64,000 bases of DNA from Welwitschia mirabilis (taxonomy: Eukaryota). The notes under the pieces were generated by a model. That model saw nothing but the letters and a program-made list of their open reading frames with translations. It searched no databases and was not told where the DNA came from. The DNA is taken from positions 11,034,974-11,098,973 of the forward strand of contig JBOZIK010000001.1 in NCBI GenBank assembly GCA_051453625.1. Direction: 5' to 3'. Positions within the stretch are counted from its first letter, which is position 1. Every line of letters begins with the position of its first letter. Of this stretch, positions 27,577-54,932 are shown piece after piece. Both the position numbers and the translations under genes were made by a program.

Positions 27577-30500
27577 AGAATACAAGAGAAGAAAAGGAGT
27601 AGATGATTCCTTAGCACAAGACTCTAAAAACTAGGAAAAAAATGGAATACATCATACCTATTATCTTTTATCTAAGGCACAAAGGTAAGAAAAATGCTTG
27701 GAATAAAGGAAAAGAAGGTAAGATGAGGAGATCAATAAGATTACAATAATAAAGTAGACAGTATTTGCTTTTGCTCTTAGTAAGTAAAAATAATGTACTC
27801 TCTTTAAATGGATGTCAAACTAGTAGTGCCTCATTAGGTGAACTATAAGAACATGAGGCATGTAATGCAAGAACATCCTTAAAAAATAAAAATAAATAGT
27901 GTATTCTAGTTAGGGGTCCATTTGTTATTTTAGTGTGCTTATGTGGGAAATAAAATCTTCCATGTGTAATTTCCATGAAGGCACCATGTGTACTTGCCAT
28001 GCAGGTGTTATGTGCAGTTAGCTTAGAGCAAACCTTGGTGAGTGGAATATGTTATGCTTGGAAAAAAACAAAGGTGTAAGGAATAAGGCATGTTTAGATA
28101 CTATTTTTAGTGAAAGGTATAAAAGGCTAATATTAAAAGAATTCTTTCATGATAATGATTCTCCTTAGAGCATTATAAATAAGAGGGTGTAAAGAGATAA
28201 AGGACATGCTAAAGTTGAGAAAAAAGAAGCAAGAGATCTTGGAGTTAAAGCTTGAGAGAAGCTCTTATTGGGGAACTTGAGGAGACAGTTCCTATTGTGA
28301 GATTGTGTCTCACTTGTATTCTCTCTTAAAGGTTATTAGGCATCAAAAGTGGTAGAGCCTAGGTGAGGCTTTTAAAATCCACTGTTGAAGAGAACTAGTG
28401 GAAGATATACTATTTTTTATTCCTATTTGTCAGATTGTGATTTTATATAATTAATAAGAATAAATTATTTTATTTACTCTAATAATAAATATTTTATTTC
28501 CTTCAATACTCTATTTATTACATATCTTCTTTAGTATTTTTTGTTTCTCATTAGAAACATAATCCCAAAAGTGTTCTTGGGGTCTTCATTATATTAGCTC
28601 TACATCGTTTAGTATCATAGCAAGTTTTAGGTTTTTTATGAGTTGGTTGTTGGATTTAATTTTAGGATGCTATGAAAAAGGATAACAGTTTCTCACCTAC
28701 AAAAGTGTTTTGCAAGGCGAGGAGTGATGAGAAGATATTATATTTTAATATAGAAGATGACAAAGATGGTGAGTATGGACTATGCATCCAAGCATTTGGC
28801 ACCAATTCCAAAGAAGAAGCAAGAAACACTCCATGTTAGAGGAACTACCAAAGTAGAGAGTAAGAGGAGCCTATTTACAAAAACCCTAGCAAATCTAGGA
28901 CAAAAGAATCTAGTAAGTATAATGATATTTGAAAGAAGCTTAAAAGTAGAAAATCTTCAAGATTGGATCTGAGGCATGTAACATTACTTCAAGATAAAAG
29001 ACATTAATAAAGAAGATAAGGCAAGGATTGCCTCAATTTGCTTGCAAGGAATTACCACCAGTTTGTGGAAGCATATCTGGAAGGGTCATCAAAATCAAAA
29101 CCTCATCAAAATCAAGACCTTTCAAATTCTTGAAACTATATGAAGAAGAATTTATAAGATAAGTTTATACTACTTTTACATATCACAGAGACAATAAGAA
29201 AGATTCTAATACTTTGGCAAGAAGAAAAGTCTATGATAGGGTACATAAATTTTAGCATACAAGAGATAACCAGATACATCACTAGGTTGAAATTTGTTAT
29301 TCTAGATAAAATTACCATTATCACTCCTAGAATAATGGAAGAAGCATATCAATTAGCACTATGAGTAGATTACAAGTTGCAATGAAGGAATAGTTCAAAT
29401 AGAGAAATATTTAAAGGAAAGAAACCACAAAGAAGGGGTCATCAATAAGAAGAAAAGATAAATTAGAGATGACGGAACAAAGGAAAAGAATAGGTCATAG
29501 GCAAAAGAAGTACTTATAAAGGAAACGTTAGAGGAGGTAATTTCTTTGCAATTTTCTAAAAATGTTATAAGCTAGGACATAAGTCTTATGAGTGTTTATT
29601 AAGCAAGGAAGCTATACAAAAGAATGTTATTTTTGAGGATGTTAGACAAGTGAATAATCCAAAAATAAAGAACCAGAAGAGGCTAGTGATGNNNNNNNNN
29701 NNNNNNNNNNNNNNNNNNNNNNNNNNNNNNNNNNNNNNNNNNNNNNNNNNNNNNNNNNNNNNNNNNNNNNNNNNNNNNNNNNNNNNNNNNNNNNNNNNNN
29801 NNNNNNNNNNNNNNNNNNNNNNNNNNNNNNNNNNNNNNNNNNNNNNNNNNNNNNNNNNNNNNNNNNNNNNNNNNNNNNNNNNNNNNNNNNNNNNNNNNNN
29901 NNNNNNNNNNNNNNNNNNNNNNNNNNNNNNNNNNNNNNNNNNNNNNNNNNNNNNNNNNNNNNNNNNNNNNNNNNNNNNNNNNNNNNNNNNNNNNNNNNNN
30001 NNNNNNNNNNNNNNNNNNNNNNNNNNNNNNNNNNNNNNNNNNNNNNNNNNNNNNNNNNNNNNNNNNNNNNNNNNNNNNNNNNNNNNNNNNNNNNNNNNNN
30101 NNNNNNNNNNNNNNNNNNNGAAAATATGTTTGTTATAAGAACTCTTATACAACATGTAAAAAATGTTAAACCGCCACAAAACAACTCTTTAGAACTACAT
30201 GTAAGTGTAAAGACAAGGTGTGCAAAGTCATAATTGATAATGGAAGCACTAATAACTTGGTTTCTATTAGGATAGTGGAAACATTAAATTTAAAGACTAT
30301 GTTATATCCATCATCATACTGACTCTCTTAGTTGCAAAAGGGAAGCCATGTTATAATAATAGAATAGTGCCTAGCCAAATTTAAAATTGGCAACTTTTAT
30401 ACTCAGGTTTATTGTGTTGTTATTCTTATGAATGTTTGTCATTTTTAAGTGCATACATAATAGGGAGACTAATAATTACATTATAATCGATACAAATGAA

Positions 30501-31172
30501 AAGAGATTTGAGTTGTTACCAAATTTAGAGAAGATTTCAAAGCATAAGATAGATGTATGCTTTGTGGAAAAAAAGAATGTGACAGACAAAATTTTAAAAA
30601 AAAAAAAAAAAGGCTATAGCATGATAGTAGTATTAAAGATGTCTTCAGAACAACAGTTGAAGGAGCATCTAATGAAGGTATAAGATGTTTTAAAATCATT
30701 TACAAATATTTATGTTGATAATTTTCCTTCTGGATTATCACTTATTAGGAGCATAAACCATCAGATAGATCTAGTCCTTGGTGCTTCACTTCCAAACCAA
30801 GCACCATATAGAATGGCATTATATAAAAGAAAGAAGATAAGTAGATAGGTTTAGGAGTTGCTAAACAAGGGGTTTATTAAGAAATATTTATCATCATGTT
30901 TTGTTCCAGTAGTATTGACTCCAAAGAAGGATAGCAAGAAGTTGTGCATGTGTATTGATTTAAGATCTATCAATAAGATGACCATCAAATATTGCTTTCT
31001 TAAGCCTTGTATAAATGATATTTTGAATTGTTTGATAAAAGCATCTATTTTCAGTAAGATAGATTTGAAAAGTGGGTTCTATCAGATTCATATCTAAGAA
31101 GAAGATGAGTGAAAGACTATCTTTAAAACCCTAGATAGGTTATACAAATGGCTGATAATGCCACTCAGATTG
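27577..31172 (+). mobile_element. CRM-like element 2 (partial 5' LTR, gag, protease, start of RT), truncated
   Basis: LTR end ...ctacatcg at 28607, decayed Met PBS tagtatcatagc at 28610. Gag with knuckle ~29560. Protease CKVIIDNGSTNNLVS (~30221). RT VPVVLTPKKD, MCIDLRSINKMT and FSKIDLKSGFYQI. Breaks off after WLIMPLRL. Confidence 0.85.
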
Positions 31173-32854: not shown

Positions 32855-35069
32855 TGTAGGCGTATCAGATCCACCTATGATCAAGGATTCTAAANNNNNN
32901 NNNNCTTGGAATACTAGGGACCTCACTAAAAGGATTTAATAGAAAAAAATTTAGTTTAATAGTTAAGATAGCTTTTATAATTTGAGTTCATTCTTGAAGA
33001 AGTGTGTGCCATTAAGGTCACAATGACTAGCTTTAATTTCTTAATCTTGTTGTGATTCAAATTCATGATTGTTTGGTGTTTACTTTCAAATTCAAAATCT
33101 CGTATTAACCAAGTTTGACAGATACATCATGTGTCAAGTTTAAATTTAAAATTTAAGCTCTTATAGCTTATAATTCAAAGTCTTTTAAATTTGTAATTTC
33201 TCATGAAAACTGTTAATGGCTTATGTATCTTGTCAAAGCCTTTACAAAGTCCCTATTTTCATGTTTTAAAATGTCCTAATAGACGGCACATCTCCATTAG
33301 CAAAATGCATCTCTCTGAAGTTCGGGAATATAATCAAAGAAGGATCTTGCTCTTACATTTTATTTTATCATTTTTAAGCCTACATGATTCTTTCCACTAA
33401 TTTCTCAAAATCTACTCTTATTCCATTAGTCTCTACTCTGCGCACTGGAATCCATCACTATTTATTTGTGTAACTCATACAATGACTACAATTGCATGAT
33501 GTTTTCTAGACATTTATCCAAAGATCCCTTGCTTTTCTCTGCGTTTCAAACTACCTAGGCAAAGAAAGATCTAGAAGGCCCAAACGCATCCACACAGCTA
33601 TGCTTGACAGAGTTCGTCATGTATCATTTTGTCATGTTATGATAACATGCAAAATCTCCGTTAACGGGAGGCCTCTTCCGTTACTTAAAATATTGCAATT
33701 TTAGGGGTTCACAAGAAGGCAAAGTCAGAGAGATTGGTGGTTCAAAGGAGCAGCAAAGCCGGCAAACGCATTTCAGAGAGTCAGATATCCTTTGGATCCC
33801 TCTTCCATCAGCGTCTTAGTAGGAGGTTAAGACATTTTAAAGAACAGAAGCTCTACGCATTCATAAACAAAGTCAAGAATCAGATATAAGCAGAGGATGC
33901 ACAGAAAATAGTAGAGGATCACATGTTACATCAAAACAGATATAGAACCGATTTCTGGTAGAATGAAGGCTTTAAAGGGAATAGAATGAAATGCAAAGGG
34001 GAAAACGCTATAGGTTTCGTCTCTGTTTTAGAGACTGAAAATCCTTGCTGGCGTTGAAATGTATCTTTCATGGTTGCCTCTTTATCTTTGATGCTATAGG
34101 CATCTTCTTCTTTATCTCTGAGCATTTTATAAGTAGAATTTGTCATTTTCTTGATTTGAAATTCCTAATGGATCACGTATAATCTTCTGTGTAATTAGAC
34201 ATAAGCGCTTGATATATGAATAGCTGTGTCATTGTGAAATCAATAGTGTGATCTAAAACTCTCCCGTCTATACTCTGGTTGTGACATCTTTCGGTTCTTG
34301 TTCTGCAGCCACTTTACTCTCCAGCCGGAAGAAAGAGAGGATAAAGGGAGATACATCGTGCATTTCTCTTCTTGAAGGAGCTTGCCTGTTTTAATTGAGT
34401 AAATCAGTTTCACAGATTCATTTGGCCAAAAATTTCAGTCTGGCTGAGAATCCAGAAGTTTCAGATTGGAATTTCAGCCTTCATCTCTTTGAGTGCACTG
34501 TTTGAAGGAAGAACAATTTTCATAGCTTGAAGTACCTCGTCTCTTAAGATTTACTCCGCGTTGCTCGCACTCTTAGAACTCTATTGCTGTGGTATTCACA
34601 GACAAACGCCTTTTTACATATAATTCACTTTAAATTTCAAATCATTTATTGTCATCTCCGCTATTTCAATCCCATAAAGCATTTCCAGAAAAGGGCTTGT
34701 CTTATAACTCTTGCTTCAAATTCGCAGGCTTTAGGTTTTCCATTTTTTAATTACTCTACCAATTTTGTAATGTACTATTATACATTGTAAGTCATTTTCT
34801 TTTACATTTAGTTTTATTTTCTATTACTCAGAAAAAATTTTACAATTAGGGCTAAAATTGTGTTTAAATTTCTCTATTTATTTTCTATTCACGACCCAAG
34901 CTCTTTTCTTTGTTGTTATGAGTTTGCTATTTAATGGATTTAAGATCTGGTTTCCTTGCATTTATTACAGAAGTTAATTTGTCTATACATTTGTGAAAGG
35001 AAGAGAAGCAAGTCCTAATAAAAAGTAAAATCTTAATAACATTATCTCATCTCATTTCTGTAGCGTTCA
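32855..35069. other. Unclassified ~2.2-kb CpG-retaining insertion in the LINE
   Basis: LINE ORF2 is interrupted near its start. Many intact CG dinucleotides at 33280-34730. TG...CA ends are possible but there is no clean 5-bp TSD. Confidence 0.5.
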
Positions 35070-38000
35070 AAACCTAAAGAAGCCAATTTATTGTCTAAGT
35101 TCTTGTTCCATGCTAAAATCTTCAAGTTTTAATTTTGTACATTTTCTCCTTAATTAGTTTTGTAAAATCTTTAATCAAATGAAAGTTTTGGTTCAGAGAT
35201 AAAACTATTAGAAAGCTTTTCAAAGGGTAGACATCTAATCTTTAGAGCCATGTTTCCTAAAGATTGTAGAACTTAAACAACTGAGGCAATGTTTTAATAA
35301 ATTAAATCATTTAATCTATAGAGCACATTTTGATATTTTAGCCTTCGGTTTCAAATATATAATCAAATTCATTAGAAATCTATTTGTTTTATTTTAAACA
35401 AAACCACATTTCTTTAGAAATGGTGTTATGATCGAAGTGAAATTTTTAATTGCTTTTAGTAACAATAGTATGATTGAACATAAAGATGTTAAAATTCTTT
35501 CAAAGTAATTATTTGACTTACTCTCTGTTGTTACTTATATTTTAACGGTCATATTGGTTGTAACACAAATTAACTAAGTTTGCATTTTTAATATACTATA
35601 GTCAATGTTTGTATGGCAATGTTTGTTAAAATGTTTGCACAAGAACTATTTAAAAAAATGTTAAATTTTTAAATCCTCGGACATTTAAATACTCTGATTC
35701 TTTTATAAGAAGTTAAGGTTTCGTTTCAAGTTATGGGTGTTATTTTCACTCAATTTATGAGTAAGGGTAAGAAATAATGTTAGATTTGCTTATAAATACA
35801 TTAATGAAAATGGAAAGATTGAAGTATGATAGAGTTAAAAATAAAATCTTAGATATTAGCAGCTTCAAATTGATCCTTTTAGTTTAGTGACTAAGGAGGA
35901 ATTAGCAAAAATGTAATCTATTTAGCAAATATGAAATTAGTATTATGTAGAAGGTGATTTTATAAAAAGCATGATGCACTAGCTAAGAGTCTAAGATTCC
36001 AGCTACAAATAATTTTTAAAATTCCTTTAAAAAATAATTATTGTAATCAAATCAATAAGTTAATCTTAGAAACTATAGAAATTTCTAATCCTAATAAGAT
36101 TTTAGATGTTTTGATTAACCATTTTAAAATAGTCTTTAAATTACAAGAATTTAATGCTAACAAATTTTATAATATTCACAGTTTCATTCCTAGTGTTTTT
36201 AAGAATAAACATATTAGCTTTCTTGAAAGTGATATTACTTAACAAAACCCTAAAAATTTTTTTTCAATATATCTAGTGACTTATTTCCAAGCTTTGATGG
36301 CATACCTATAGAATTTTATAATGAGAAGTAAAATATTACTAGAAACAACTTCTTCTAAGTAATCAAATAAGCCATGTCTAGGTATTTTTTAGGACTTTAT
36401 ATAACTAAAGGAGTCATCATATTGCTTTCTAAATTTGGTAATAGAAATGTATCCATTGATTGGAGACCAAAAACATTATAAACATTTCTTATAAAATATG
36501 GATAAAATATGTTGCCAAAACACTATAAAAGATTATTTTAGACATTGTTAGTTAAGAAAAATAGGTTTTATTCCTGGTCCATACATTCTTAGCAACATGC
36601 TAACAACTTGAAAAGGACATCCATGAATGTGTAACAATAACATCTATTTCATCAAAATTGACTACAATAAAGTGTATGATCATATTACTTAGAAATTCAT
36701 TCTAAAGTACATAGAAAATATTAGATTTGATCCTAGGTTTTTAGACATGATAAAATATTTTTTTGCTGATTATAATGCTTGCATAGCAATTGATGTAAAA
36801 CTTTATGATAATTTTCCTGTAACAATGTTAATATGAGAGGGTTTCCCACCTGCCTTTTTTCTATCTATCATGGTAGTTAAGTTTTTAAGTTATTACATTA
36901 AGAAAGAATATGGTTTATTTAAATGCATTAAAACCATTTGTGGTTCTAAGTATATGATAAATATGCATTTTTCAAATGATTTATTTTTATTTAAAAAATG
37001 AAAATAGCTACATTGAGAAGATTCTTGAGATAATTGAGCAATATCATACACTTTTAGGATTCAAGATCAATTGGAAGAAGTCTTCTATATAAAATAGTAA
37101 AGGTGATACTTAGTTTCTAAAGAGCAAATCCTAGAAGACTATTAGATAAAACATCATCAAGATTATAGTTATATTAATCTCTTTTAATGGTATAACCTCT
37201 AAGCTTTGGAAGGAGACTCTTAATAAGTCCAAGTAGAAGATCAATAAATGGAAAATAAAAGAACTATGTTATGCAAGAAAAGTATTGATATGCAAGTCAG
37301 TATTTCTTCTTTTCAAAATCTACCTTCAATAATTACAAAAAGATGGAATCTCTACTACGGAGCATTATGTGATTAATTTTAAGCAATAAAAGAGGTTTTA
37401 ACAAATTTTCTTAGAAAATATGTTTCCTTCTAACTAAAAATAGTATTGATACTCATTAAGAGCTTCCATCAAGTACAATAGCCATGCTCTAAATGGATTC
37501 TATGTTCTTTCTCATAGCATAGCATTGTTTATGATCCCTTATTTACTAGATTAAAAAGGTGTAAATCTAAGAACAAGAAGATTTGGAAGGAACTCAACCC
37601 TCTAAATTGAATCATATAGTCTTAGTTAGTCATACCAAGATGTACTCTTTAATAGGATTTGGTTGGCATGAAGAGTGATTCATAATTCCAGTAATTGCAA
37701 CTCTTTAAAAACTTTTAGTTTATTGCTTTAAAGGATTTTTCCTTAGTTGATTCCAAATGGAAACATCCTAAAATGATTTTTAAATCTTAAATGAATAGCT
37801 CATTGGATGTAAATATTTTGGGTATCTTTATCATATGTAGCTTCCAATAGGAATTTTTACCATGGGACTTGTTTGAGTTATTTTATGATTATACACATAA
37901 TGTTAAGAGATTTCATAGTTAGATATTTACTTTTTTAGAGGACATGATAATAGTAATGATAATAATAGCTCAATCCAATAGAGTTTACAATGGAAAAAAG

Positions 38001-38391
38001 GTTTACAACTTTCTTCCTTTTAGACTAGAAAGGGTTTACAATTTGATGAAAGAAGATATAATGATTTCTTAAAATCTATAGAAAATGAGAAATAAATGAC
38101 ATTGAAAGTATCTAGATTAATTGATTTTATAAACTCTAAAAATGCTTACACTTTTAAAGGATGATCATTTTAATTGGTATATTCCTTATAAAAGATTATC
38201 CTTAGATAGTCATTTTTAGGACTTAGGGTTTTCCTTTAATATTTATCGCTTGTTTAAAGACAAGGAATTATCTAATCATACATTTATAACATATAGGTTT
38301 ACTATTAAATGTAACAGTCCAATTAATTTACCTTAATAAGAATAATTTTCTTTAGATTAATTAAAATTATTAGTGAAACATAGGATCAACT

Positions 38392-38422
<31 letters not shown>
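38392..38422. repeat. (AT)n microsatellite
   Basis: Direct reading. Confidence 0.9.
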
Positions 38423-38599
38423 GCATGAAAAACATAAACTAAAAATATTTCTTATAGAAAGATTAACTTGGCTTGCAAATAATAGCAATATCACTTATGT
38501 GTCCTATAGTTCTTTCTAGTGTTTTTCCACATAAAGATATCTTATATATAGTTAATGAGATGTTAAATTGTTTTAATACAAATGTAAATATATGTTTAG

Positions 38600-38960
38600 C
38601 ATAATTCTTAATCAATAGAATAGGAGGTTGCATCTTCTATTGATGAAATTCCAACTCAATTTTTGACCATTATCTAGATGTGAGTTGATTTTATTTTTGA
38701 TTTTAAACTATAAAAACATTGTTGGGCTCAACTCCATATGCTTAGACTTTATCTTGATATACAATTAGAAAGGCAATAGATAGGACATGAGTTGGATGCA
38801 TGCTTACAAATGGCCCTTGCTTTCTTGAAACATCTTTGAATGGTGTAACATGATCTTTCAACACCAAGGGCTTAGGATATCAAATTAGAGTAAATACATA
38901 CATGGGTGAGTAGGAGTGTGGTGATGACATTTACTTCCAAAAGGGTTTATTAAAAAAAAT
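38600..38960 (-). pseudogene. hAT (DUF659-type) transposase fragment
   Basis: Minus-strand SNLIS*ALG...TIQRCFKKARAICKHASN resembles hAT LNLILKDIG...IEKAKxIxKFIYN. Confidence 0.4.
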
Positions 38961-39675
38961 GCAATGTAACCCATCTTTATGATGAAATCTAAGTATGGGA
39001 ATGAACTTTATTAGAATTATCATAGTTTAGTTATCATTTGGTAAATACACCACACAAATGAATGCATACAATTTTAACTAATATGGATATTTAGTTGCTT
39101 ATTTATGTACAAAATATAAATCTAACTTCATTGGGTTTATTTAATTATGAACAATCACACATATAAGGAAAAAAAAATCATACATAATCTTCATTTGACA
39201 TATTATAAAACAATTGCTTTTGAAAATATAGTAATGGAATTCAAGACATTATGAATATCTTCCTTTTATTTTACATAATTTTAAATTCCAAATAAACCGT
39301 ATTTGCACTCTACAGCTTATTTTTAAAGGAAATGAAAATATTCTACACATGAAATTATACTTCTCTTTAAACTCCTTTCTACAAGTTTAACTAGTAATTT
39401 TCTAAGATAATGGTATCATTAATAAAGAGGGGGTAAAATTAAAAATCACAAGATGTAATGGTTACATAAAGTTAATGCATCTATAAAATCAACAAAGGTG
39501 ATAAAAATCAAAAGAACTAATTAAGTTGTCTAGATTGTCAAAGTCAAAACCCTCATAAACTTTTAAAAATATCTATTAAAATACTAGTAAATAAAGAAGA
39601 AAGGATTTTGTATACAAATTATAAATATTAATAATATTATAAAATTAAAACTACACCTTTCTTAAATAGCTAAAA

Positions 39676-39741
39676 TAGGAGATTCACTTACTATTCAAGA
39701 AAAATTATGCTAAACTAGGAGATTCACTTACTATTCAAGAA
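39676..39741. repeat. Direct duplication of 26 bp
   Basis: taggagattcacttactattcaagaa occurs twice. Confidence 0.9.
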
Positions 39742-40113
39742 TAAGTCCTTAATAAGGAAGGAATAAATTATGCTTTATCAAAGAAAACTTAACAGAAATG
39801 ATATAAAATAAAATTTATCTAGTTATTCTACATCTTAAAGTCTTAAATTATTAGAGTAATTTTATTTAATAAATTTTTTCTAATTAATTAGATAATTTCT
39901 AGCCTTCTAAAAACTTCATAATTAAAAATTGATAATTAATTATTTATAAGGGTAAAAATAAATTACTATAGTTTTTCCTAAACTAGACTCATTATATCTG
40001 AGCTACAAGAGTATTAACAACTTGTAATGAACTTCATAGATAGGTACACAATCCAAGACAACAATTTCTCAAACTCAAGCGCATGCATTTCCATTTTCTG
40101 TTAGTACTTAGAG

Positions 40114-40974
40114 ATGGAAGGAAACTGAATCTTTCTTTCTTCATTGCAGAGAAATCAAAGGAAAAATTTAGAGCTTGTATTCAAACTTGATTAAGGGAAC
40201 TAGACCAAGGTGAAACCTAGCTTCTTAGGATGAGGCATTGGGAGAGGTAGATTTAATCTTCTTAAAGTAGAGTTTTATAGCTTCTAGTGTAAACAGTAGC
40301 ACTTAAGTTAGGCACTGGAGTAAGTTCTAGTGAAAATTTTCTAGAAGCCTTTTGGATGCTTTGCAAGGGCAGAAGTGCTCTCAGGAAGAAAGAGTGTGGT
40401 ACTTTCAAGGCTACGGATAACTCAGGGAAGCTTGTTAGTGAAGAAATTATGAGAGATAGGTAGCTAAAATGGCCAAGAAATTTGGGAAGGGGAATCCAAA
40501 AGTAATTGTTATTAGTAAAGATGAGAAAGACGAGGATGGCCTTAGAGTTGGAAGAAGGGCATGTTAGGGAATAAAGTCCTTATGGGGAGAAAGATTCAGA
40601 GGCCACAGTCTAAAAAAAGAGCTAGGCTAAAGTTCAATGAACAAGATTATTAATCAAATTTTTCTAGAAGTTTAGATGAGAAAAGTCTAAGCAAGAATGG
40701 AGGGAGCAGATGGCTGGATTCAGATTTAAAGCCAGATTTTGATAACACGACCACGGAAAAGGATTATAAGAACCATTATGAGGTCCTAGAAATCAGATCT
40801 GGGATTAAGCAAGAGGATATTATTAGGGCCCATAGGAAATTAGTGTTGTGATAACACCCTTATAAAAATAAGAGTAATCCTCAAGAGGCATGGAAGATGA
40901 CTAAAGACGTAAACGGCACTAAGGATGTCCTGACAAATAAGAAGATCAAAGCAATTTTCCATTTTTGTCACTAA
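40114..40974 (+). pseudogene. Decayed ORF with C-terminal DnaJ J-domain (element J1)
   Basis: 40759-40974 translates KDYKNHYEVLEIRSGIKQEDIIRAHRKLVL**HPYKNKSNPQEAWKMTKDVNGTKDVLTNKKIKAIF. ATG at 40114, charged linker with KKRARLK upstream, T-rich 3' region and A-tail 41509-41529 downstream. Confidence 0.8.
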
Positions 40975-42279
40975 TAGAAGCTCACCCAAAAGTATGGGTG
41001 CTAGTCTTAACCTTTATGAAGGGTGTTGGTTTATGTTTTTATTTTTATAGTTTTTGATCAATTTGCAGTCTTTAGATATTAGTTTTGATTTATGTAAGTA
41101 GCTACTAGTTTTGGGAGTTGTTATAAGTTTTTTGATTCCTTGAGTCTCTAAGTGTAAAATGGAAATAGAAAATATGATTCACAATTTTAAAAGAGAAGCT
41201 CTTATTTTGAAAAAAGTTGAAGTAATTTTCGAAGCTACTCACAAGGTTTTTTTTCCTTTCTCTTTTTTTTTGATTTTTTTTTTCAAGAGGAGGTGGAAGC
41301 AATTTTACTATTTTACTCTTAGTACATCAGGAGGGAGTATTTTGCATGTTTTAGGCCTAGTATTTTGCCCAAGATAGATGCAAGTTTAAGCTAATCATTG
41401 TAATCTCAGGTATTTCCTCCTACTTTATTTGTTGTACGTATGTTTCTCTTGGTGATTTTTGTATACTTCTCATGTTTTTATTTTAATAGAAAATGTCCAC
41501 TTTTATTTAAAAAAGAAAAAATAAAAAAATGGACTCATTGTATAAGTTTTAAACATTAAATCTATCAAATTTGGATAGTTAAGAATACATTTTCTAAGAT
41601 TATATATTAAGAATAAAAATTGTATAAATTTTTAAAATTATTATCATACCACACCAAACTAAAAAGGTTATAACCTTTAGACTACTTTGAATTTTTAAAT
41701 GATTTAAATACTTTGGAAATATTATTTAATTTTCTATTATTAAACTATTAAATCACTATAAATAACTTAGTATTAAATCTATAATCTAAGATTAAATGCT
41801 TACTAATTCATATGTTTATTTTTGTAGTTATATATATTAAATAATTTCTAAAAAATTATTAACTTTTAAAATTTACTATTATTAAATTTTTATAATGTTG
41901 ACTGAATTTTGAGCTTACCAAAAAAATCTCATTAAAATATAAGAAATATTTAATGAGTCATGATCTCCCTAAGTTATGTTATCAATTTCAAAAACATGAT
42001 CTTTATCTAAATAAGAACATATAGACTCATATATANNNNNNNNNNNNNNNNNNNNNNNNNNNNNNNNNNNNNNNNNNNNNNNNNNNNNNNNNNNNNNNNN
42101 NNNNNNNNNNNNNNNNNNNNNNNNNNNNNNNNNNNTAAATAAGAACATATAGACTCATATATAAATCTAAGGAACTATAGTTGATGAAATTTAATGCAAA
42201 TACCTAATATACTAAGTCTATGTAATATACACAATAAATTTTAACTAATAAAAATTTATGTTAATTATAAAATTCAATG

Positions 42280-44165
42280 CACAAGATTAAGTAAAAGTAG
42301 ACAACTTCAATGAGCCTTAAGATTAACATGAAGGACTACCTAGCGTAAGTGGGATTCAAGATTAGATAATTCATCCTAATAAAAGGATTCTAATGCATAT
42401 ATGATGCATAAAGAAACTTCAATAATCAATAAATAATTCACAACAAAACATTGGTATCAAAATGTTATAATAAACCCCTTTGTCAATTGGCTATATTATC
42501 CATTGGTAATTGCATCAACTAAGCATGTAAACAGATCACTTAAATCCCTCCTTTATCTCAGTTTTAGCCAAATGGGAGGAATAATTTTAAACAAACAATA
42601 TAATAAGCTTATGCAATGGCCTAATACAATACCTTTTTCATGACACAAATTTCCTTAGAGAATAAATAACATAGGAATATAGGAAGTAGAGGAAACCTAC
42701 TTAGAAATTCATGATTGAAGGATTCCATTTGATAAAGTTTGATGAATAATTAATGAAGTAGTAACTTGTAAGATCCTTATCTCCAAGCTTCAAGCTCTAA
42801 GTTACAATCTCCAAACTCAAAAATAAGAGTACAAGAAGAGAAGAAAAGAATGTGGAAGAGTGAGAGGAGAATTAATATCACAAAGTCATCTAAAAGTGAA
42901 AAATTAATTTTTAAGAGAGGTAAGGGATATCTTTATGGGTAAATAATAAACCAAAATTCCTCGATTCAATTAGTTAAAAAATACACACATCATTTAATCC
43001 ATGAGATAATATGATTACAATAAAGTGGATGTATTAATCCCATTGAATTGAATAAGATGGGTTACACTAAATTGGATAAGATTGATCAATAATAAGTTAG
43101 TTCAGCTTAACTAATAAGTGACATTAATGTGTGAATGGAAAAAAAATACATCATATTTATGATTCATGCATGTAACTAAGGTGAGTAATTCTCGTACTTT
43201 AATTAGCAAGGTTAATGACAAACATTTTTTCTTCATGATAATGCATTCTTGATACTTCAAAAGCTCATAAGCATATTCAATCAACTCACAAACATGCATT
43301 GAATAGTGTTTAATATGCATTAAATGAATACTCTTTTTTCTATGCACTAATTTTAAAAGTTTTATGTGTCATAATGAGATAAACCTTTCTATTTTAGTGA
43401 ATTAAAAAAATTGGATATTTTATAAACCAAGTACTTTTGTAAGGTTAAGAAGAATAAAAATCATAGTATAGTCAAATCTACTCATTCATCCTTCTTACTT
43501 TATTCATAAGAGTGCATATAGTTATTTATGTGCTCATTAATTTTATGATCCATAAAATCCATTAACACAAAACACAAGAAAGCAAATGTCATAATAGAAT
43601 GTAGTACACTTAAATTTTTATCCACTTCTTTTGTCAAATACATTAACCATTTACTTTTACTAAGTAATTTTACTTTTTTGATTTCGATGAGACGCATGAA
43701 TAAGTATGTAGTAATATAAATATTAAATATGTCATTCTTGTAAATATTTTATTATCATTTTATGCATTATTATAAAATTCTCAATTTAATAATTTTACCA
43801 TCTAAAGGAGATGCCTTTATATAAATATAATTCTTTGATTTTAATGTTTGGATAGCGTGTTTATTTTTTTCATAAAAATTTTTATAAAAAAATTATCCAA
43901 AAATATTAAAACTATGAGAATAACCTAAAAATTAAGATTAATTACTTAAAATATTGTATGACTATCTAGAATTCAAAATTAAGCATAATGCATAGATTTT
44001 AACATAAGAAAAAAATATAAGATATCATTTGTAATAAAAATAAATATTATTTTTTATGAAGATTCTAATTAAAGAAGGGATTTCATATTAAAATTATCAT
44101 ATGATTAAGAGATTAACATGTTTAATGTTTCAGTAATTAAAGGTTACAAAATGTGGGATATAACA
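42280..44165. mobile_element. Possible decayed LTR remnant(s)
   Basis: LTR-like purine-rich block at 42650-42940 and a possible terminus gtgggatataaca at 44165. No partner copy or PBS seen. Confidence 0.25.
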
Positions 44166-44939
44166 TTAAGTTCTAGATGCGGACCAATACTACTCTCTAA
44201 ATATGATTGACAGATAAAGAATTTAGAGTTTTTTAAGGTAATCCTAAGCTATCAAACTCTAATGCCTTCATCTAGAATTACATGCAACCTTGAACTTGAT
44301 ATTTATCTATGGTTATTTTATTATAAAGTTCATTTTTAGAATTTATAACTTTCTTATTTTTGATATGTATAATAACGATCTAATGTTTGTAGCATGTCAT
44401 ATTTTAGATACAAACACAAGGAGAAGACTTAACTTGAGGTTAATTAGCTGATGTATCTTTTTGAGCATTTGTTTGATAAACTTACCTAGTATCTACTCCT
44501 CCTAGATCTCCATAAGTGAGCCTCCTTGCATCTTATCTTAGATAAAACTATTGATTAATAAGTAGAGTAGTAATTAAAATGGTTTAATCTTTATTCTCTT
44601 AGGGTATAATGAAAAATCTTTACTTCTATTTCATTTGGCTTATGTAGGCCTTTTGCACTTTAAAACTATATTGTTATTATTTTTCTTGGAGTATGGTCTG
44701 GTAGCCATTTGATGTTTTCATGATTCTTTGATAGTCGATTATTACTTAATATCTCTGGCATTTTGTACTAAATCTTATATTTTGATGTCTAATAACATTT
44801 TTGGCATCTAGCATTCCCTACTAGCTATGTAGATTTTATCTTTTTCTACCACATCTTAATCACTTACTTAATCATAATTAATTATTAATTATACATTAAT
44901 TATTTACTAATTGTATCCACTAGTTAAGACATTAATTAT

Positions 44940-47900
44940 TGATGAAATATAATTTTGTAAAAATAATTAGTAATTTTTGGATGTTTAACCTTTTTAATAA
45001 GTGTGTTTTTATTGTTATTAGATTAATAATTTAGTTAGTATGAATAGGAATGTAATATAAGGATATATATGAATATATATACAATGAATTATGCACTAAG
45101 ATATTCTTAGGTAAAAGAGGTATCACTTGGCAAGAAGATGTAAATAAGACAATAGAATGGTTAAAAAGATAGGATCACCACTCCCATATAGGTAGTTTTA
45201 ACAAGGAAGAAGAGTAACAACCTTGGTAGGAGATTAGAGAACAAAAATAAAGGAAAAAGAAGAAAGTAAAATAATGGTTCTTTGGCAGGAAGGGAAAACT
45301 AGCAATATTATAGGAAAGTCTTAGTTAAGGATCCAAGAAAAGAGCTCTAGTACATTCTTAGAAATGTGACTAGCATCTACATAGCTCCAGTTTCATCTAA
45401 AAATGAAAGCACTTTTAATTATTATTCTATATAATCATAGTACTAAATTTGGTTGCAATTGAAAGCCTAACTTATGCTATGATAAATTACTACATTACTC
45501 ATAAAAGTGTTTTTTGTTTCTTAGCTACGGTATCTATTGTTAGTAGATATCAAGATATAATAGTGCCTAGAAATAGATGTTGTCCAACATTATTTATAAA
45601 TGATTCTGTATTACTTAACCCCTAATTTGTACTTTATGTATAAAATATGTTGTATTTATGCTTCTAATAAAGTCCATTTTCAACCTAATATGCTTGAGTG
45701 ACTATTCTCAAGAGCTAATCATGGTAGCACAACTTAAACTAAATTGGCTGAAAAATTAACCATCTTAGTTAGTTCTTTAGCAATATTTATTAATTTTACT
45801 AATGACTTAGCTTATTTATAGCACATAACCAACATTTTTAATATCTTTATTATAAAAATTATTGTTATTTATACACTTTTATTTGCATAATAATTACAGT
45901 CATTTTGGTACTAGAAGGAGGACATCCTAAAGTTGACTAGCAAAGATGAAGCACTATACAGTCCAAAAAGATAGCCAAATAAAATGAAGACATGAAAAAG
46001 GGAGGTTTGTTAAAAATCCTAAAAAATATAACTTAATAGATCAAAAGGATATTAAAACTAAAATGGAAATAGTACAAGAATACTTTGATGTAGAAGAAAC
46101 TACTTTAGAACATGTAATAAAAGAATAATTTTTTTTTTTAACATATGAATGAAATGGAATAAGGATTAGCTAACCTACTTAGGATACCTCACAATTAAGG
46201 GAATTCTTCTAAAGGATCTTAATCTCACCTTTCTAGAAAGAAATTTTTATTACGTTATAATTAGAAAAATAACGGAGATGCTAATCCCTTAAATAGTGAT
46301 ATCCATTAGTTAGACGAATTAAGTTCCACTAACCTAAATGTATTGGAGATTTCTAATAAAGTAAGAAACATTAACATAACCTCAATCCCTAAAAATTAAA
46401 AAACCACTTATTCATTTGAGTCTGTTTGATTTCTTTGGTAAGGCTAATTATCTAGACTTGGAATCAAAACATTTGAGACATTTTCCTTTTTTCTTAAAAG
46501 GGGGAGCTTAATTATGGTGTTATAGGACCCATAATTATGCTTTTAACTCTTGGAGAATACTTAAAAATGCTTTTTTAAATAAATTTTGATCCATGAGGAT
46601 AATAGAAGACATAATAAAATAAATTTTTAACATCAAATAGAAAGATAATGAGAGATTTAATGAATTTATGAATAGATATAATATATTGCTTGAAAGATGT
46701 GCTAACAATGGAATTTAACTTAGATAAAGAGTAACAGANNNNNNNNNNNNNNNNNNNNNNNNNNNNNNNNNNNNNNNNNNNNNNNNNNNNNNNNNNNNNN
46801 NNNNNNNNNNNNNNNNNNNNNNNNNNNNNNNNNNNNNNTAGATATAATATATTGCTTGATAGATGTGCTAACCATGGAATTTAACTTAGAGAAAGAGTAA
46901 CAGATTTACTTGAGGGTTAGATTCAAATCTTAAAATAAATAGATTTATTATATAGAGAAAGCATTAAAAGCAAAAATTTTCATAAAATCGAGAAAGCTAT
47001 TACTCAATTTTAGAGCATGAACCAAGAATGTATACAAGAAGACAAAAAGAAAAACATTAATAAGGTGTTAACTTCTAAAGTAGAAGGTAATTTGTATAGT
47101 TATAAACATGTTATTATATTTATAGTTCTAACAATATTAGTCTTATGAAAGACGTTGCTGAGAAAGTAACTAACAATATGTTTGAGAAGTTTGATCAACT
47201 ATCTATTCAAAATTTAAAACAAGAAGAAGGATCATCTATGAACATTGTGAATAAGATAGATATGAAGAAACAAGTTGTTTATGGATATAAGAAGTTGTCT
47301 AATGATTAGACATAAATAAGCTAGATGTAAATGTAGGGAACTAACCTTAAGCTAGAAATAAACCTTATCCTTATCAAATCAGAAAATAGAAGACAAAGGT
47401 AGAAAATCCTTTTCAAAAGTATGTCAACTCTAAGATCTACTAATAGTTTGAGTATTATAAAAATTAGAAGAATAAAAATTATAAAAATAATTAAGAAAAA
47501 CACAAGTCAAATAAGAAAGAAAGGAATATTCCTACACAACCACAACCTAACTATAAAGAATCCACTAGTAAAGCAGTGTCTACTAGGTAAGAAAAACCTA
47601 AAGTAATAAAATGGAAACCAAAGAGAAGGAATAAGACAAATACATCCTCCAAAAAAGAAGAAACCTCAACAAAAAACAAAATAGTTATTTTAGAACAGAC
47701 ATGATTCATGACCTTTTCCATGAAATGTAATTAAATTAAGCATCCAAAGATTGAAAAGGATATGGAATATTTAATAAAGGCTCTTAAACATACTACAATA
47801 GCTTATCCCTATTAAAACTACTAAAATATGTGCTAGTTTATTGTAAGTAAATAAAAATTATGTGTTTCCAAAAAAGGAGTAAAAAGGCAGAAAAAGAAAA

Positions 47901-50900
47901 ACAAATAGAAATCATAAAAAAGAATCAAATCTTCTAGGATTCCACATAAATTCTTTAGAAGAAACAACATGAGAAATATAGTGAACCAGGGATGCCTATG
48001 ATAGACATTAAACTTGATAATAGATTCGAGGTTAAAGCCTTGATTGATTTAGGGATAAGTGTAAATTTAATGGCTTATGAAACCTATGAAGAGTTAGAGA
48101 AATCAGAATTATCATCCTTTCAAGGGATGGTTTACCTGATAAATGGATCAATAATAACTCCTAAGGGAATTCTCAAAGATTTTTCTATTAAACTCTAGGG
48201 ATTTACCTATTTATTAAAATATTTAGTTATGAAAAATCAAGGGGACACACATGCAATAATCTTAGAAAGACCTTGTATGGATACTAATGATTCCACTATT
48301 TACTCTATGGAAGGAGTAATAGAGATAAGTTTAGGAGATTTAAAATAAGAAATTAAGTTAGGTGATGTAGCAATTTTATAGAAAATAGGATTAAACCTCA
48401 AGATGGAACTAATTCCATATTACTCTAATAAGTTTATATAATTTTAAAACAATAAAATGAACAAAAATATAAAGAAGAAGGATTAACATCTTAGGAAATT
48501 AAAAAACCACCTCTTAATGATGGATTGAAATACATTGAGATAGCTCTCAATACACCTTTCATAATTAGTAGTATCTTAACTCACTCTTAAAAAGAAAACT
48601 TAATATATTGTTGGTTAAAAGAAAATGAGTATTTGCATGGCATTATACTGATATTAAAGGAATAATCTTGAAATATGCTAATACAAGATCTACCTTGATA
48701 AATTAATTAAAACTTGCAGACAACTTGAAAGAAGATGTAATTCATACATGTAAGAGGTAATTAAATAAGAAGTAATCAAACTCCTAAATATAGGATCTAT
48801 ATATCCTATATCAAACTTAAAATGGATTAGTCATATTATATTCGTACCAAAAAAAGGAAACAAATGATGAGTCTATATAGATTTTAGAATGTTAAAAATA
48901 GTAACCTTTAAAGACCATTTTCCTTGTATCATTTATGAATTAAGTTTTAGATAGAATCGTAGAACAACACTATTATAGTTTACATGAGGGGTATAGTGGG
49001 TACAATCAGATTCCTATAGCTCTAAAAAACTAGGCAAAAACTATCTTTACAAGCTACTAGAAAATCTATGCCTTTAAACTATTAATTTTTGGTTTATGTA
49101 ATTCTCTAGCTACATCTTAAGGATTAGTAAATAGCACATTTCATGACATGATAGGGAGATTAGTTGAAGTATTCATGGATGATTTATCAACCTTTAAAAA
49201 TAAATTTGAGGATTTATTAAACTAATTAAAAAAGGTCTTAAAAAGATGTTAAAAAAAAGGTCAAGCTGATTTGATCTAAGAATCACTTTACAGTCACAGA
49301 AGGGATTGTCTTTGGGCATAAATTCTCACAAAAGGAAATTAAAATCGATGAAAAAAAGGTAAAAACTATAAAAAACATACTATCCTTAAATAAATTAAAA
49401 CAACTTAGATTTTTTCTTCGACATGTCCAATATTGTAGGAGGTTAATAGCTAATTTTAATAAAATTACTAAACCTTTTAAAAAGCTTCTCCAAAAATATG
49501 TGAAATATAATTGTATTGATGAATGCTAAGAAGCCTATCAAACATTAAAAGAAAATTTTCTCATAACTCTTGTGTTACTATAGCCCAATTTGACAAAGTT
49601 ATTTCATATAATAATAGATGCATCTAACCATGCTTTGGAAGTTATTCCAAGAAAAATAGATGATGTAAAAAAAAACCTTATGCTATTACTTATATTAATA
49701 AAACTTTATTATATATTACTAAAAAGAAATTAGGGGAAATGGTCATGTCATTAGAAAAATCAAGACATTGCATTTTAAGATATAAAGTAAAAGTTCATAT
49801 TGATTATAGTGTAATAATATTTTTGATGAAAAAGAAAGAGGCAAATTTGAGGATTATGAAATGGATATTGATAATGTAAGAATTTGATTTAAAAATTATT
49901 GATAGAAAGGAAACAAAAAGTGTAGTGAAAGATCACTTATCTACATTATAATTTCTTGAAGAGGAGGAACAAATTAATATTAGAAATGAATTCCCTAATC
50001 AATACCTTTTCCAAATCGAAATAAACCCATGGTTTATTAATATTGCTAATTTTATAGTTAGTAAAAGACTACCACCTCTCATGAACTAATATTAAAAAAT
50101 AAAATTATTAAGAGAAGTTAGAGATTACATCTGATATGCAAAAATGTTATTTAAAAAAATGTAAAGACCATATTATAAGAAGATGTATTGAAGAAGAATT
50201 ACAGAATAAAATCCTTAAGAAAGCTCATGAAGGAGAAGCCAAAGAACATTATGGTGTAAAAATAAAAAAGATGAAAATCTTACATATAGGATACTATTGG
50301 TTAATAATATTTAAAGATTCTGTTTTCTATGTTAAAAATTGTGATAAATGTTAAAGGGAAGGAGAATCTACTCAAAATATGAAGATGCAACAATAATGAA
50401 TTTAATCAATTGAACCTTTTTATGTATGAAGAATGTATTTTATTATCCCAATTAATCCTTCTTCACATGAAAAGGGATACATCCTAGTACGTGTCAATTA
50501 TTTCATTAGGTGGGCAAAGGCTTAGGCTCTAGCACATTATTCTTCTAAAACTATCATAATTTCTCAACAACATCATCTATCAATTTGGAGCCTTAAAAAG
50601 TCTTATCTCGGATTGAAATACTCATTTTACAAGTGAAATACCTAAAAACTCCTCTAAAAATATGGGATTCATCATAAGCTATCTACTTTCTATCATCCTT
50701 AAACTAATGACCAAGCTAAAGTAACCAATAGGGAATCAAGTAGAATGTTAACAAAACCTATAAACATAAAGAAAACTAGTTGTGCAAAAAAAGTAAATGA
50801 AGCCTTATGGGCATATAAGATAACTTGGAAATAGAGTATAGGGTTTACATCTTATGAATTAGCTTATAGAAAATAGGCAATAGTGCTGATTGAATTCAAA

Positions 50901-52455: not shown

Positions 52456-54932
52456 TATTGTGATGCGTATTTATACAATAATTATGCTCAAGAAGACCCT
52501 GTCATTTAAAAATGAAATAGATATTTTACACAACACAATACACTAATATGTATGGGATGGACTTGAATGTCATAATCCGTCAAAGTCTTAGGCTAGAAGA
52601 AAGAGAATTGACTTCAGCAAGAAACACTTACATATTGTAGTAACAAAAATAAATTGCAATGCAGTAAAGTACAATGTAACATACTTACACAAAGTTAATT
52701 TAGAATGAAAAAGGAATAATAAACCTAAACTAATAATGCTTAACCTTAACAAAAGTTTCCCTCATTACCTATATTACTTAAGAAACTATAGAAGCAAAAT
52801 AAACTATAAGGGATAAGTAACAATAAGCATAGAAATAAAAAATAGTTTTTGTATTAAAGTCGAACCACATCCGTGTTACAAAGTAGCCATACCTCAAGAG
52901 AAAGCATAGCCCAACACCAAGGAAGAAATCTTTCTACAACTACCAAGGATGAATCTCTGGTCTTTCGATCTCTTATCATAAGAATTTCTAATATAAGAAA
53001 AGACAAGATAGGCTTAAGGACGGAATTGATACTTATTAATAACAAACACACCAATAATAAAATTGACAAAAAATAATGGGCACAACCCTAACAGTTATGT
53101 AAAAGACATAAAAACAAATGGTAATAGTTAGGTAAATGTTCATTGAAGCATGATAATATATGTCATCCTGCTTATCATTTGAATAATATAGGGGACGATG
53201 TTACATCATAAACAATTCATGTTATCTAACAAATTGATCACATTTGGCATCTTTATTAGCTTTAATTATTCTATAGTCCAGAAGGATTATTGATAAAAAA
53301 TGCTAGTTTCTTTTCAATAAAATAATCAAAGAAGACCATCATCCCCTTCATTGTCCCGATGATAGGTAGGACGACACTCTGCTGATGTGGACTACTGAGT
53401 CAGCATTTCAAGAATATTCTATAATGTATTATCATGTCCATACTCATTTGGATGATAGCCCTGATGATACTCTTATGTAACTGACTCAAACAAGATTCTC
53501 TTGATTGTTTTGTCCATTTTCGAGTCATTGATAAGAATGCCTAACTGCACCAACCGTCTATCCTCATTTGCTGAATTTCCTTATACATAGGTCCTCCTTT
53601 GACTCTCCTTAGCATCTTCGATGCATCGGACATTCTTGTGATAGGAGATCGAAGGGTAGAATATCCATTTGCATGTGTTGCAGAAAGACGTGCACTTGGT
53701 GGCGGGCTGTGAATCTTCCATTGAGACCCAGCTATTTTGTAACCTAGATGAATGTTACTTTTTAACATAAAATCTTATTTTCTTTTCATGCCTACATTGA
53801 AGATATTCTAATTTCCCTTATAGTCTATGTTACTCTTGATCTGGTGACAATTTCTTGGGTGATATAGATTATCAAGTGTAGCCTTTGTTAAGGCTGGAAG
53901 CAAGTAGTGATATAGTTATTTTCAAATTTACATTTAGAATAATCGCATTTTACATTTTACATTGTATATTTATTTTCTTGCATTATTAGCTATTTTCTAA
54001 TTCCTCTTATTCTATAAAGCAATCTAAGTCTTATCTCATAGACTTCAATGAGATATGATATTTTGGGTCTACTACCATTATATTAGTGTTTTGTATTGTT
54101 GGAGATAATTATTTATTTTATTATTGATAGAATCCTTTGAGCTTAAGCACTCACACAAATACACACTACAACAAATTGGCACCATTGCCAGGAAAGTCTA
54201 TTGAGGAGTATGAGAGTTATCATCATTTGAATGAGTACATCAAATTTCTATTCAGTTATTCATCTATAGTGACATTGTATTTTTATTATAAATCATAGGT
54301 TTTCTATTTGTGGTTTTTATTTTTTTCAGTTTTTTTGATTTTCGATTTTTCTTTTTCTTTTACCATTTTTTTAGTTTCGATTTTAAGTTTTAATTTTTTT
54401 TAGAAAAATAGTGGTCTTTCTTTCTGTCGTCCTCATGACAAATAGGACAACAGTGTGATTTCAATTTCTTAGATTTTCATTTTTTTATAATAAATTAGTT
54501 TCTATCGTCTCCTGTGATGTTCGGATGATCAAGTGAACAACAAATCTATTTTTTGTATTTTTTGCTTTCTATTTTTAGTCTCAGTCCTATTTTCTGTTTT
54601 TGTATATCGGTTTTAGTTCTGTTTTGTTTTTCTTTTATTTCTATGTTTGTCATCCCTTCTGTCATTTCCATGATGAACAAGACGATAGTGTTGTTTTTTA
54701 TTTGTTTTTTTTTTGTTTTCTGTTTGCAAGAAACTATGATGTGATTGGTCCAGAAAAGGGCTTATCAGAGAAAAAAAGGGCTACTGACAGAAGAAAGTAT
54801 TTAAAAAAGTTAGGAACATAAAACTCTAAGTGCATATATTATTTTTCCAAGATCATTTTATTTTTATCATTTTTAAGCACCTACCTTCATCTTGAACTAA
54901 AGATTCTCTTCCTTCCATTCTTCTAGAAAAAA

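Follow-up and report, generated by a model that had tools for sequence, protein, structure and literature searches.

A degenerate J-domain within a 1,532-bp insert, probably an old processed pseudogene derived from the gene of a small class-C-like J-protein

The window considered here is the whole stretch of 64,000 nucleotides, AT-rich eukaryotic DNA that has a GC content of 28% and a CpG observed/expected ratio of 0.18, contains seven N gaps and lacks long ORFs. It contains several decayed pieces of Ty3/gypsy type: an RVT_1 match at 30855-31094, a gag piece at approximately 46479-46712, an aspartyl protease at 47959-48195, an RT RNase H at 49664-49876 and an integrase zinc domain at 50112-50351. 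No RNA family of Rfam was found in the window. The locus of interest is a 1,532-bp block at 39998-41529, separate from the gag piece, which carries the remnant of a J-domain. Tandem repeats near it are limited to short AT-rich ones, and a blastn comparison of 40000-41600 against the window returned the segment itself and no second copy.

The J-domain lies on the forward strand at 40771-40959, where Pfam PF00226 (DnaJ) matches over profile positions 1-62 of 63 with an E-value of 1.1e-11 and a score of 45 bits, against a curated cutoff of 27.8. This match is real and far above chance, and solved structures and alignment identify the same domain. It occupies a single frame, the frame of position 40114, without insertions or deletions, exactly as a preliminary description of this DNA had read it. 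The translation in that frame ends in KDYKNHYEVLEIRSGIKQEDIIRAHRKLVL, two stops, HPYKNKSNPQEAWKMTKDVNGTKDVLTNKKIKAIFHFCH and two further stops; stops were entered as X for the profile search. No other Pfam domain was found in the six frames of 39998-41529. The closest solved structures are the J-domains of DNAJB8 (E 8.8e-10), DNAJB6, DNAJB2 and DNAJC5 (PDB 2dmx, 6u3r, 2lgw and 2n04), with E-values that range from 8.8e-10 to 5.5e-6. They have in common with the remnant the spacing 'HP.KN..N..EA' after helix II. The similarity is limited to the 63-residue domain, however, and in these proteins the J-domain is N-terminal, whereas here about 75 codons precede it and a stop follows.

The HPD tripeptide between helices II and III of a J-domain is required for stimulating the Hsp70 ATPase. 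At the corresponding place, 40849-40863 on the forward strand, the remnant reads TGA TAA CAC CCT TAT. Two in-frame stops (40849-40854) thus stand inside helix II, directly 5' of the His-Pro codons, and the tripeptide is HPY (TAT at 40861-40863), not the HPD expected of a functional Hsp70 co-chaperone. As a comparison set we used those 124 of the 150 nearest J-domain proteins that carry the pattern xxHPxK. The residue after His-Pro is D in 123 of them and E in the remaining one, and in none is it Y. At the first stop position the set includes K (82), R (21) and Q (12), and at the second W (69), Y (34), F (9) and H (6), with no instance of Q. In the helix III core, the alignment shows that the positions occupied by F and A-Y in relatives have been replaced.

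The preliminary description had placed the two stops correctly, but went on to revert them by single T>C changes to Arg-Gln and implied an HPD motif. That reconstruction is not supported. A stop that can be reverted by T>C is any TAA, TAG or TGA, so the reversal carries no evidence. From the codons and the comparison set, TGA may possibly be a former Arg, in which case a CGA codon would have lost its CpG to deamination; a former Gln at TAA is not favoured, given its count of 0 among the 124 relatives. Finally, turning Asp into Tyr takes a G>T transversion, a change that deamination does not produce. Deamination as a general process fares better: the CpG observed/expected ratio of the insert is 0.22, with GpC at 1.10, and this strong depletion, together with the value of 0.18 for the window, makes decay by deamination plausible. 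Among the letters listed for other copies, 10 positions have T or A in the window and C or G elsewhere, 6 are the reverse and about 10 are transversions, so the changes themselves show no clear excess.

The remnant of the reading frame is short. From 39998 to 40545, the forward strand has no recognisable frame, as judged by stop counts, the lack of a Pfam domain and the step in GC content. Per 182 codons, we counted 17 stops in the J frame, and 15 and 11 in the other two. This part contains the ATG at 40114 and may be either a 5' UTR or coding sequence decayed past recognition. The near-complete ORF, with 640 nt of N-terminal sequence starting at 40114, that had been described earlier is therefore rejected; the density of J-frame stops upstream of 40546 is the same as in the other frames. 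A frameshifted path through the 5' part was also tried, running in frame +2 at about 40268-40460, in frame +1 with MAKKFGKGNPKVIVISKDEKDEDG at about 40469-40565 and then in the J frame, and it was likewise set aside, having neither statistical nor homology support.

Coding-like sequence begins at 40546 and extends on the forward strand to 40971, comprising an N-terminal extension of about 75 codons and the J-domain. It holds 3 stops in 142 codons (TAA at 40651, TGA at 40849 and TAA at 40852) and is thus not an uninterrupted frame, although stops are scarcer in it than the background of 107 in 1,363 would predict (p = 0.003, binomial), and scarcer also than in the J frame further upstream (p = 0.009, Fisher). 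Within the extension, in the J frame, lies the basic stretch KKRARLK (40612-40632, forward strand), which had been pointed out before and which may be called NLS-like by composition only. The frame is closed by TAA TAG at 40972-40977, four codons 3' of the Pfam match. What follows on the forward strand, 40978-41508, is T-rich (44% T), lacks any domain, reads as non-coding and resembles a 3' UTR, so that the J-domain is C-terminal in what remains of the frame, as previously reported.

The inverted repeat CACCCA/TGGGTG, which had been noted as a small hairpin near 40985, is indeed present at 40983-41000 in this 3' part. We rejected it as a meaningful element, because it does not rise above chance: shuffled sequence contains on average 3.7 perfect 6-bp stems with loops of 3-8 nt, of which the insert showed one, and at a local z-score of -2.07 its folding is equalled by 9 of 200 shuffles.

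The insert as a whole thus consists, in order, of 548 nt in which no frame is open, 426 nt that are poor in stops, a T-rich 3' part of 537 nt and a tail. Judged by its letters, this layout looks like that of an mRNA. The 5' part is an exception in one respect, as 548 nt without a frame is long for a UTR, and it counts against the reading of the insert as a processed pseudogene that we favour below.

The edges of the block are marked by composition, by a tail and by a repeat of the target. Its GC content is 34%, compared to 21% in the 5' flank (39400-39997) and 18% in the 3' flank (41530-42035), and the steps are sharp, at approximately 40000 (from 16-27% to 34-41%) and approximately 41500. At 41509-41529 of the forward strand is a decayed poly(A) tail, AAAAAAGAAAAAATAAAAAAA, in which 19 of 21 letters are A. 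Its last A, at 41529, is precisely the 3' end assigned in the preliminary description, whose 5' end of 40114 has to be moved out to 39998. Directly after the tail, which therefore sits between the insert and the repeat, comes the 3' copy of a target-site duplication, TGGACTCATTGTAT (41530-41543, forward strand). It agrees at 12 of 14 positions with the core TAGACTCATTATAT at 39984-39997, both mismatches being A/G transitions. This core belongs to the 5' copy, AAACTAGACTCATTATAT (39980-39997, forward strand), which lies in a high-copy AT-rich host repeat. If the preceding A-rich letters are included, 39980-39997 and 41526-41543 agree at 15 of 18 positions (83%; repeat family D16). Matches as good as these within 39900-40100 are found for 11 of 8,876 local 18-mers (0.12%) and for 52 of 8,880 local 14-mers (0.59%). 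The target can be written ...TTTTTCCT/AAACTAG..., with a nick, CT/AAAC, that agrees with the canonical TT/AAAA at only 4 of 6 positions.

An independent check on the duplication came from public DNA. Contig sets from organism A (X1) and organism B (X4), together with two RNA runs from organism B, were aligned to 39850-41700 at a likeness of at least 80. Sampled words of the stretch occur in DNA runs at a fraction of 0.95 in organism A and 0.45-0.58 in organism B (13 rows, 4 studies); no RNA run was listed as matching them. The flanks of the insert belong to a very abundant repeat, for which variant letters occur in 70-126 contigs per position. Past 39997, 98 contigs in X1 and 108 in X4 continue with a different consensus from that of the insert, and by a count made by eye this consensus matches the far side of the insert, 41544-41573, at 26 of 30 letters. 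Of the four letters that disagree, two, 41546 G>C and 41560 A>C, belong to those listed for the repeat family. In addition, some contigs join the two flanks: 39997 to 41584 (4 and 6 contigs) with about 40 letters between the sides, and 39996 to 41563 (4-6 contigs) with 21 letters between them. The host repeat therefore runs on uninterrupted in contigs from which the island is missing together with the tail and one of the two 14-mers, which amounts to an empty-site demonstration of the target-site duplication. Defining that duplication had been put forward earlier as a check on the element, and it now stands at 39980-39997 and 41526-41543, with the empty site in about 100 contigs per organism. 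The window itself supplied no usable empty site; compared to it, the flanks gave only AT-rich matches at 57-77%, apart from a stretch of 37 nt that matches at 81% and an exact repeat of 28 nt that spans an N gap.

Organism B carries the same copy. Two of its contigs diverge from the window by 1.2-1.7%: the one spanning 39968-40840 differs at 15 of 873 nt, and the one spanning 40819-41654 has 10 differences over 836 nt, plus 2 gaps. The 3' junction is bridged in organism B with 125 nt of flank; contigs at the 5' junction have 30 nt of flank, which is one below our bridging criterion of 31 letters. Because the copy is present in organism B, the insertion is older than the split between A and B.

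The unit has no enzymes of its own. We found no reverse transcriptase, endonuclease or LTR-element domain in the six frames of 39998-41529, and in 34001-47202 nothing of the kind apart from the separate gag piece, in agreement with the earlier statement that no reverse transcriptase or endonuclease follows the J-domain. Nor was a LINE ORF found in the parts that were scanned (24 ORFs, and 34001-47202 in six frames), and the unit showed neither terminal inverted repeats nor Helitron-like or MULE-like domains.

From these observations we conclude that 39998-41529 is probably an old and ordinary processed pseudogene, copied, as we infer, from an mRNA whose gene would have encoded a small J-protein like those of class C. 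The locus is not a hidden near-complete gene. When a LINE copies a cellular mRNA in trans by target-primed reverse transcription, it characteristically leaves a poly(A) tail and a duplication of 14-18 nt with an A-rich start, on a unit that has neither flanking LTRs nor its own enzymes. The earlier suggestion that movement would need LINE machinery in trans is thus borne out as regards the tail and the duplication, with a LINE being the presumed source of the enzymes. The starting point would have been the polyadenylated mRNA of a small J-domain protein without a G/F region or zinc finger, whose J-domain was C-terminal, after an extension of about 75 residues. LINE endonuclease and reverse transcriptase, supplied in trans, would have copied this mRNA by target-primed reverse transcription at a nicked chromosomal site. 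The copy would have landed within a member of the very abundant AT-rich repeat, with duplication of 14-18 nt of the target, and has probably been without function since. Neutral decay would then account for the loss of CpG, the 3 stops in the remaining frame, the change of HPD to HPY and the loss of residues from the helix III core.

Comparable copies have been described in plants. According to one study (PMC4838847), L1-like retrocopies in Arabidopsis and cassava were called by a poly(A) tail of 10-22 nt, a duplication of 13-17 bp and the lack of flanking LTRs. The J unit is like them in its tail (21 nt), its 14-18-nt duplication, the A-rich start of its target and its lack of LTRs and enzymes, and it differs from them in its nick, CT/AAAC as opposed to TT/AAAA, and in that its parent, against which the loss of introns that defines a processed copy would show, was not found. 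It is also old: 2 of the 14 duplication positions and 2 of the 21 tail positions have changed since insertion, and the nearest other copies are only about 80% alike.

As to the kind of protein that was copied, J-proteins of classes A and B have an N-terminal J-domain followed by a G/F region and a DnaJ C-terminal domain, and those of class A also a zinc finger; none of these features was detected in the remnant. Class C (type III) comprises the Hsp40 co-chaperones whose sole common feature is the J-domain. The remnant resembles them in that its J-domain is not N-terminal and that no G/F region, zinc finger or DnaJ C-terminal domain was detected. It differs from them in its HPY, its two stops in helix II, its replaced helix III core and its lack of an intact ORF or transcript.

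We searched for the parent in several ways. A word-index search of proteins with the 286-aa read-through gave no match at E ≤ 0.001, and the same type of search with a 132-aa piece gave none at E ≤ 1, either among proteins of similar length or among longer ones. In an exhaustive HMMER search, all 150 matches fell within query residues 36-132, the J-domain starting at residue 66; the top match had 45% identity and an E-value of 4.5e-10, and none reached 1e-10. Hence no parent was found in the protein collections searched, and none was found in the RNA runs. In approximately a quarter of each of the two RNA runs from organism B, 33 and 20 reads were placed, all of them on a 42-nt patch (40637-40678) and with unrelated ends, and we saw neither a transcript of the locus nor one of a parent at least 80% alike.

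Relatives of the insert do exist in the DNA. Besides the copy itself, each of the two organisms has contigs that are 80-90% alike, 3-9 per position. Over the J-domain, matches about 80% alike include 40718-40964, with 49 differences in 247 nt, which lies inside contigs of 1,342 and 5,116 nt; others cover 40036-40159, 40470-40593 and 41028-41089, in a patchy manner. With the 5', J and 3' parts all represented among these contigs, it is the unit as a whole that has relatives. The letters that they share are more canonical than those of the window: with 40790 A>G (E>G) the domain reads EVLG, and with 40949 A>G (K>R) it reads KR. Among the best-supported other letters are also 40863 T>C and, three positions on, 40866 A>G, and 6 of the 13 changes listed for the J region are synonymous.

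Two proposals can be built on these relatives. The first takes the locus for one of a small family of whole-unit copies in two related organisms, whose source would be either a small nuclear C-terminal-J protein gene that is unrepresented in the collections, as the lack of a full-length relative in the protein collections searched would suggest, or a transcribed, dead template with HPY and stops that served as a retroposon master, and which would have spread by retroposition. We regard this as unlikely. The second, which we hold to be quite improbable, is that the insert belongs to a mobile family with few members, either as a retroposon that is non-autonomous and LINE-dependent or as the product of a transcribed-pseudogene master, in which the J remnant was cargo and the template was already dead. 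The tail and duplication at the locus fit such a retroposon equally well, relatives extend over three segments besides the J-domain, and the best-supported other letters listed include no change, and the positions listed no majority change, at 40849-40854 or 40861. If relatives were to share the stops and the Tyr codon, this would point to a template that was already dead and not to a live mRNA. On the positions listed, such sharing is no more than a possibility, and CpG sites such as that of a CGA codon would decay in parallel in all copies. The canonical J letters (EVLG and KR) and the proportion of synonymous changes fit instead with some relatives being, or being near, a functional gene, and the related contigs are few. 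SINE-like LINE-dependent retroposons have an A-rich tail, a duplication and insertion in trans in common with the J unit, which differs from them by its mRNA-like layout, its protein-domain remnant and its mere handful of related contigs.

A processed pseudogene, then, remains our reading, and the junctions bear on whether the insert was copied through RNA at all. It might be the relic of a resident gene, or a duplicate made at the DNA level (segmental or transposon-captured), with the A-run and the direct repeat arising by coincidence in AT-rich DNA. In such flanks A-runs and short repeats are indeed frequent, 0.6-1.6% of local 14-mers having a match at 12 of 14 positions, and the parent gene was not found. 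Coincidence would nevertheless have to explain why, in about 100 contigs of each organism, the empty-site host repeat has its joint precisely where the two copies of the 14-mer lie, why the tail stands exactly between the insert and the 3' copy of the duplication, and why the compositional island has its sharp edges at the same two points; the lack of terminal inverted repeats and of Helitron-like or MULE-like domains speaks against capture by a transposon. We therefore consider this explanation very improbable. The least probable is retroposition mediated by an LTR retrotransposon, in which the mRNA would have been co-packaged and recombined into an LTR element: that route appears, according to the study cited, to be the major one for retroposition in plants (PMC4838847), and the window is full of decayed Ty3/gypsy-type pieces, to one of which the host repeat could belong, but a poly(A) tail and a 14-18-nt duplication of the insert's own at its ends indicate target-primed reverse transcription and not template switching, and no LTR-element domain adjoins the copy within about 5 kb.

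For annotation, the consequence is that 39998-41529 calls for masking, or for the label of a processed pseudogene, and not for a gene prediction, and the copy has little importance beyond that. Its insertion is unusually well documented for its age, by a tail, a duplication and an empty-site consensus, and it provides a clean example of retroposition of the LINE type, not the LTR type, in a genome dominated by Ty3/gypsy debris. Present in two organisms at a divergence of 1.2-1.7%, the copy is also a dated neutral marker. If its parent is a small J-protein specific to this lineage, it is the parent gene, and not the copy, that would be the interesting object.

The sequence on both sides of the retrocopy, most likely a decayed processed pseudogene of a J-domain protein mRNA (39998-41529), belongs to one very abundant AT-rich repeat, of which the flanks at 39850-39997 and 41530-41700 are parts. 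Across the public DNA contigs of the two coded sources, organisms A and B, compared at a likeness of at least 80, summed depths over these flanks run into the thousands, and variant letters occur in 70-126 contigs per flank position. A search within the window found other matches of this repeat, mostly 57-77% alike.

RNA reads from organism B, which carries the same retrocopy, matched this locus: 33 in one run and 20 in another, all confined to a 42-nt patch at 40637-40678. These reads share four fixed differences from the window and continue on either side of the patch into identical sequence unrelated to it. They derive from an expressed transcript from elsewhere that shares a short similar segment, and not from transcription of the retrocopy locus.

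Downstream, an exact 28-nt repeat (42008-42035 and 42136-42163) borders a gap of 100 Ns at 42036-42135 on either side, and looks like an assembly overlap remaining at a scaffold gap. Two pairs of related open stretches were found, and a Pfam search with the peptides of all four matched no family. The stretches at 53544-53774 (-) and 60062-60298 (-), spaced about 6.5 kb apart, encode clearly related peptides (in common, ...LKSNIHLGYK.AGSQWKIHSPPP...SDASKMLRRVKG...) and could be a pair of LTRs or an unclassified repeat that occurs twice. Those at 56062-56394 (+) and 56690-56953 (+), with a spacing of about 630 bp, share ...PNHI..L..N..HHL.D.SSKISQP.PLITSCAKSNIFSSF...; an N gap (56495-56594) falls between them, and the pair may have arisen by tandem duplication or be an artefact of the assembly at that gap.

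The window also holds the decayed interior of a Ty3/gypsy-type LTR retrotransposon on the + strand (46479-50351), in which gag (about 46479-46712), aspartyl protease (47959-48195), the RNase H of the reverse transcriptase (49664-49876) and the integrase zinc-binding domain (50112-50351) follow one another in that order, each interrupted by stops. Further upstream, also on the + strand, a CCHC zinc-knuckle-like stretch (KCYKLGHKSYEC, about 29560) adjoins an N gap (29692-30119), and a reverse-transcriptase fragment (RVT_1; E 3e-4, under the cutoff) lies at 30855-31094. Together these two pieces (29560-31094) probably represent a second decayed LTR-element interior.
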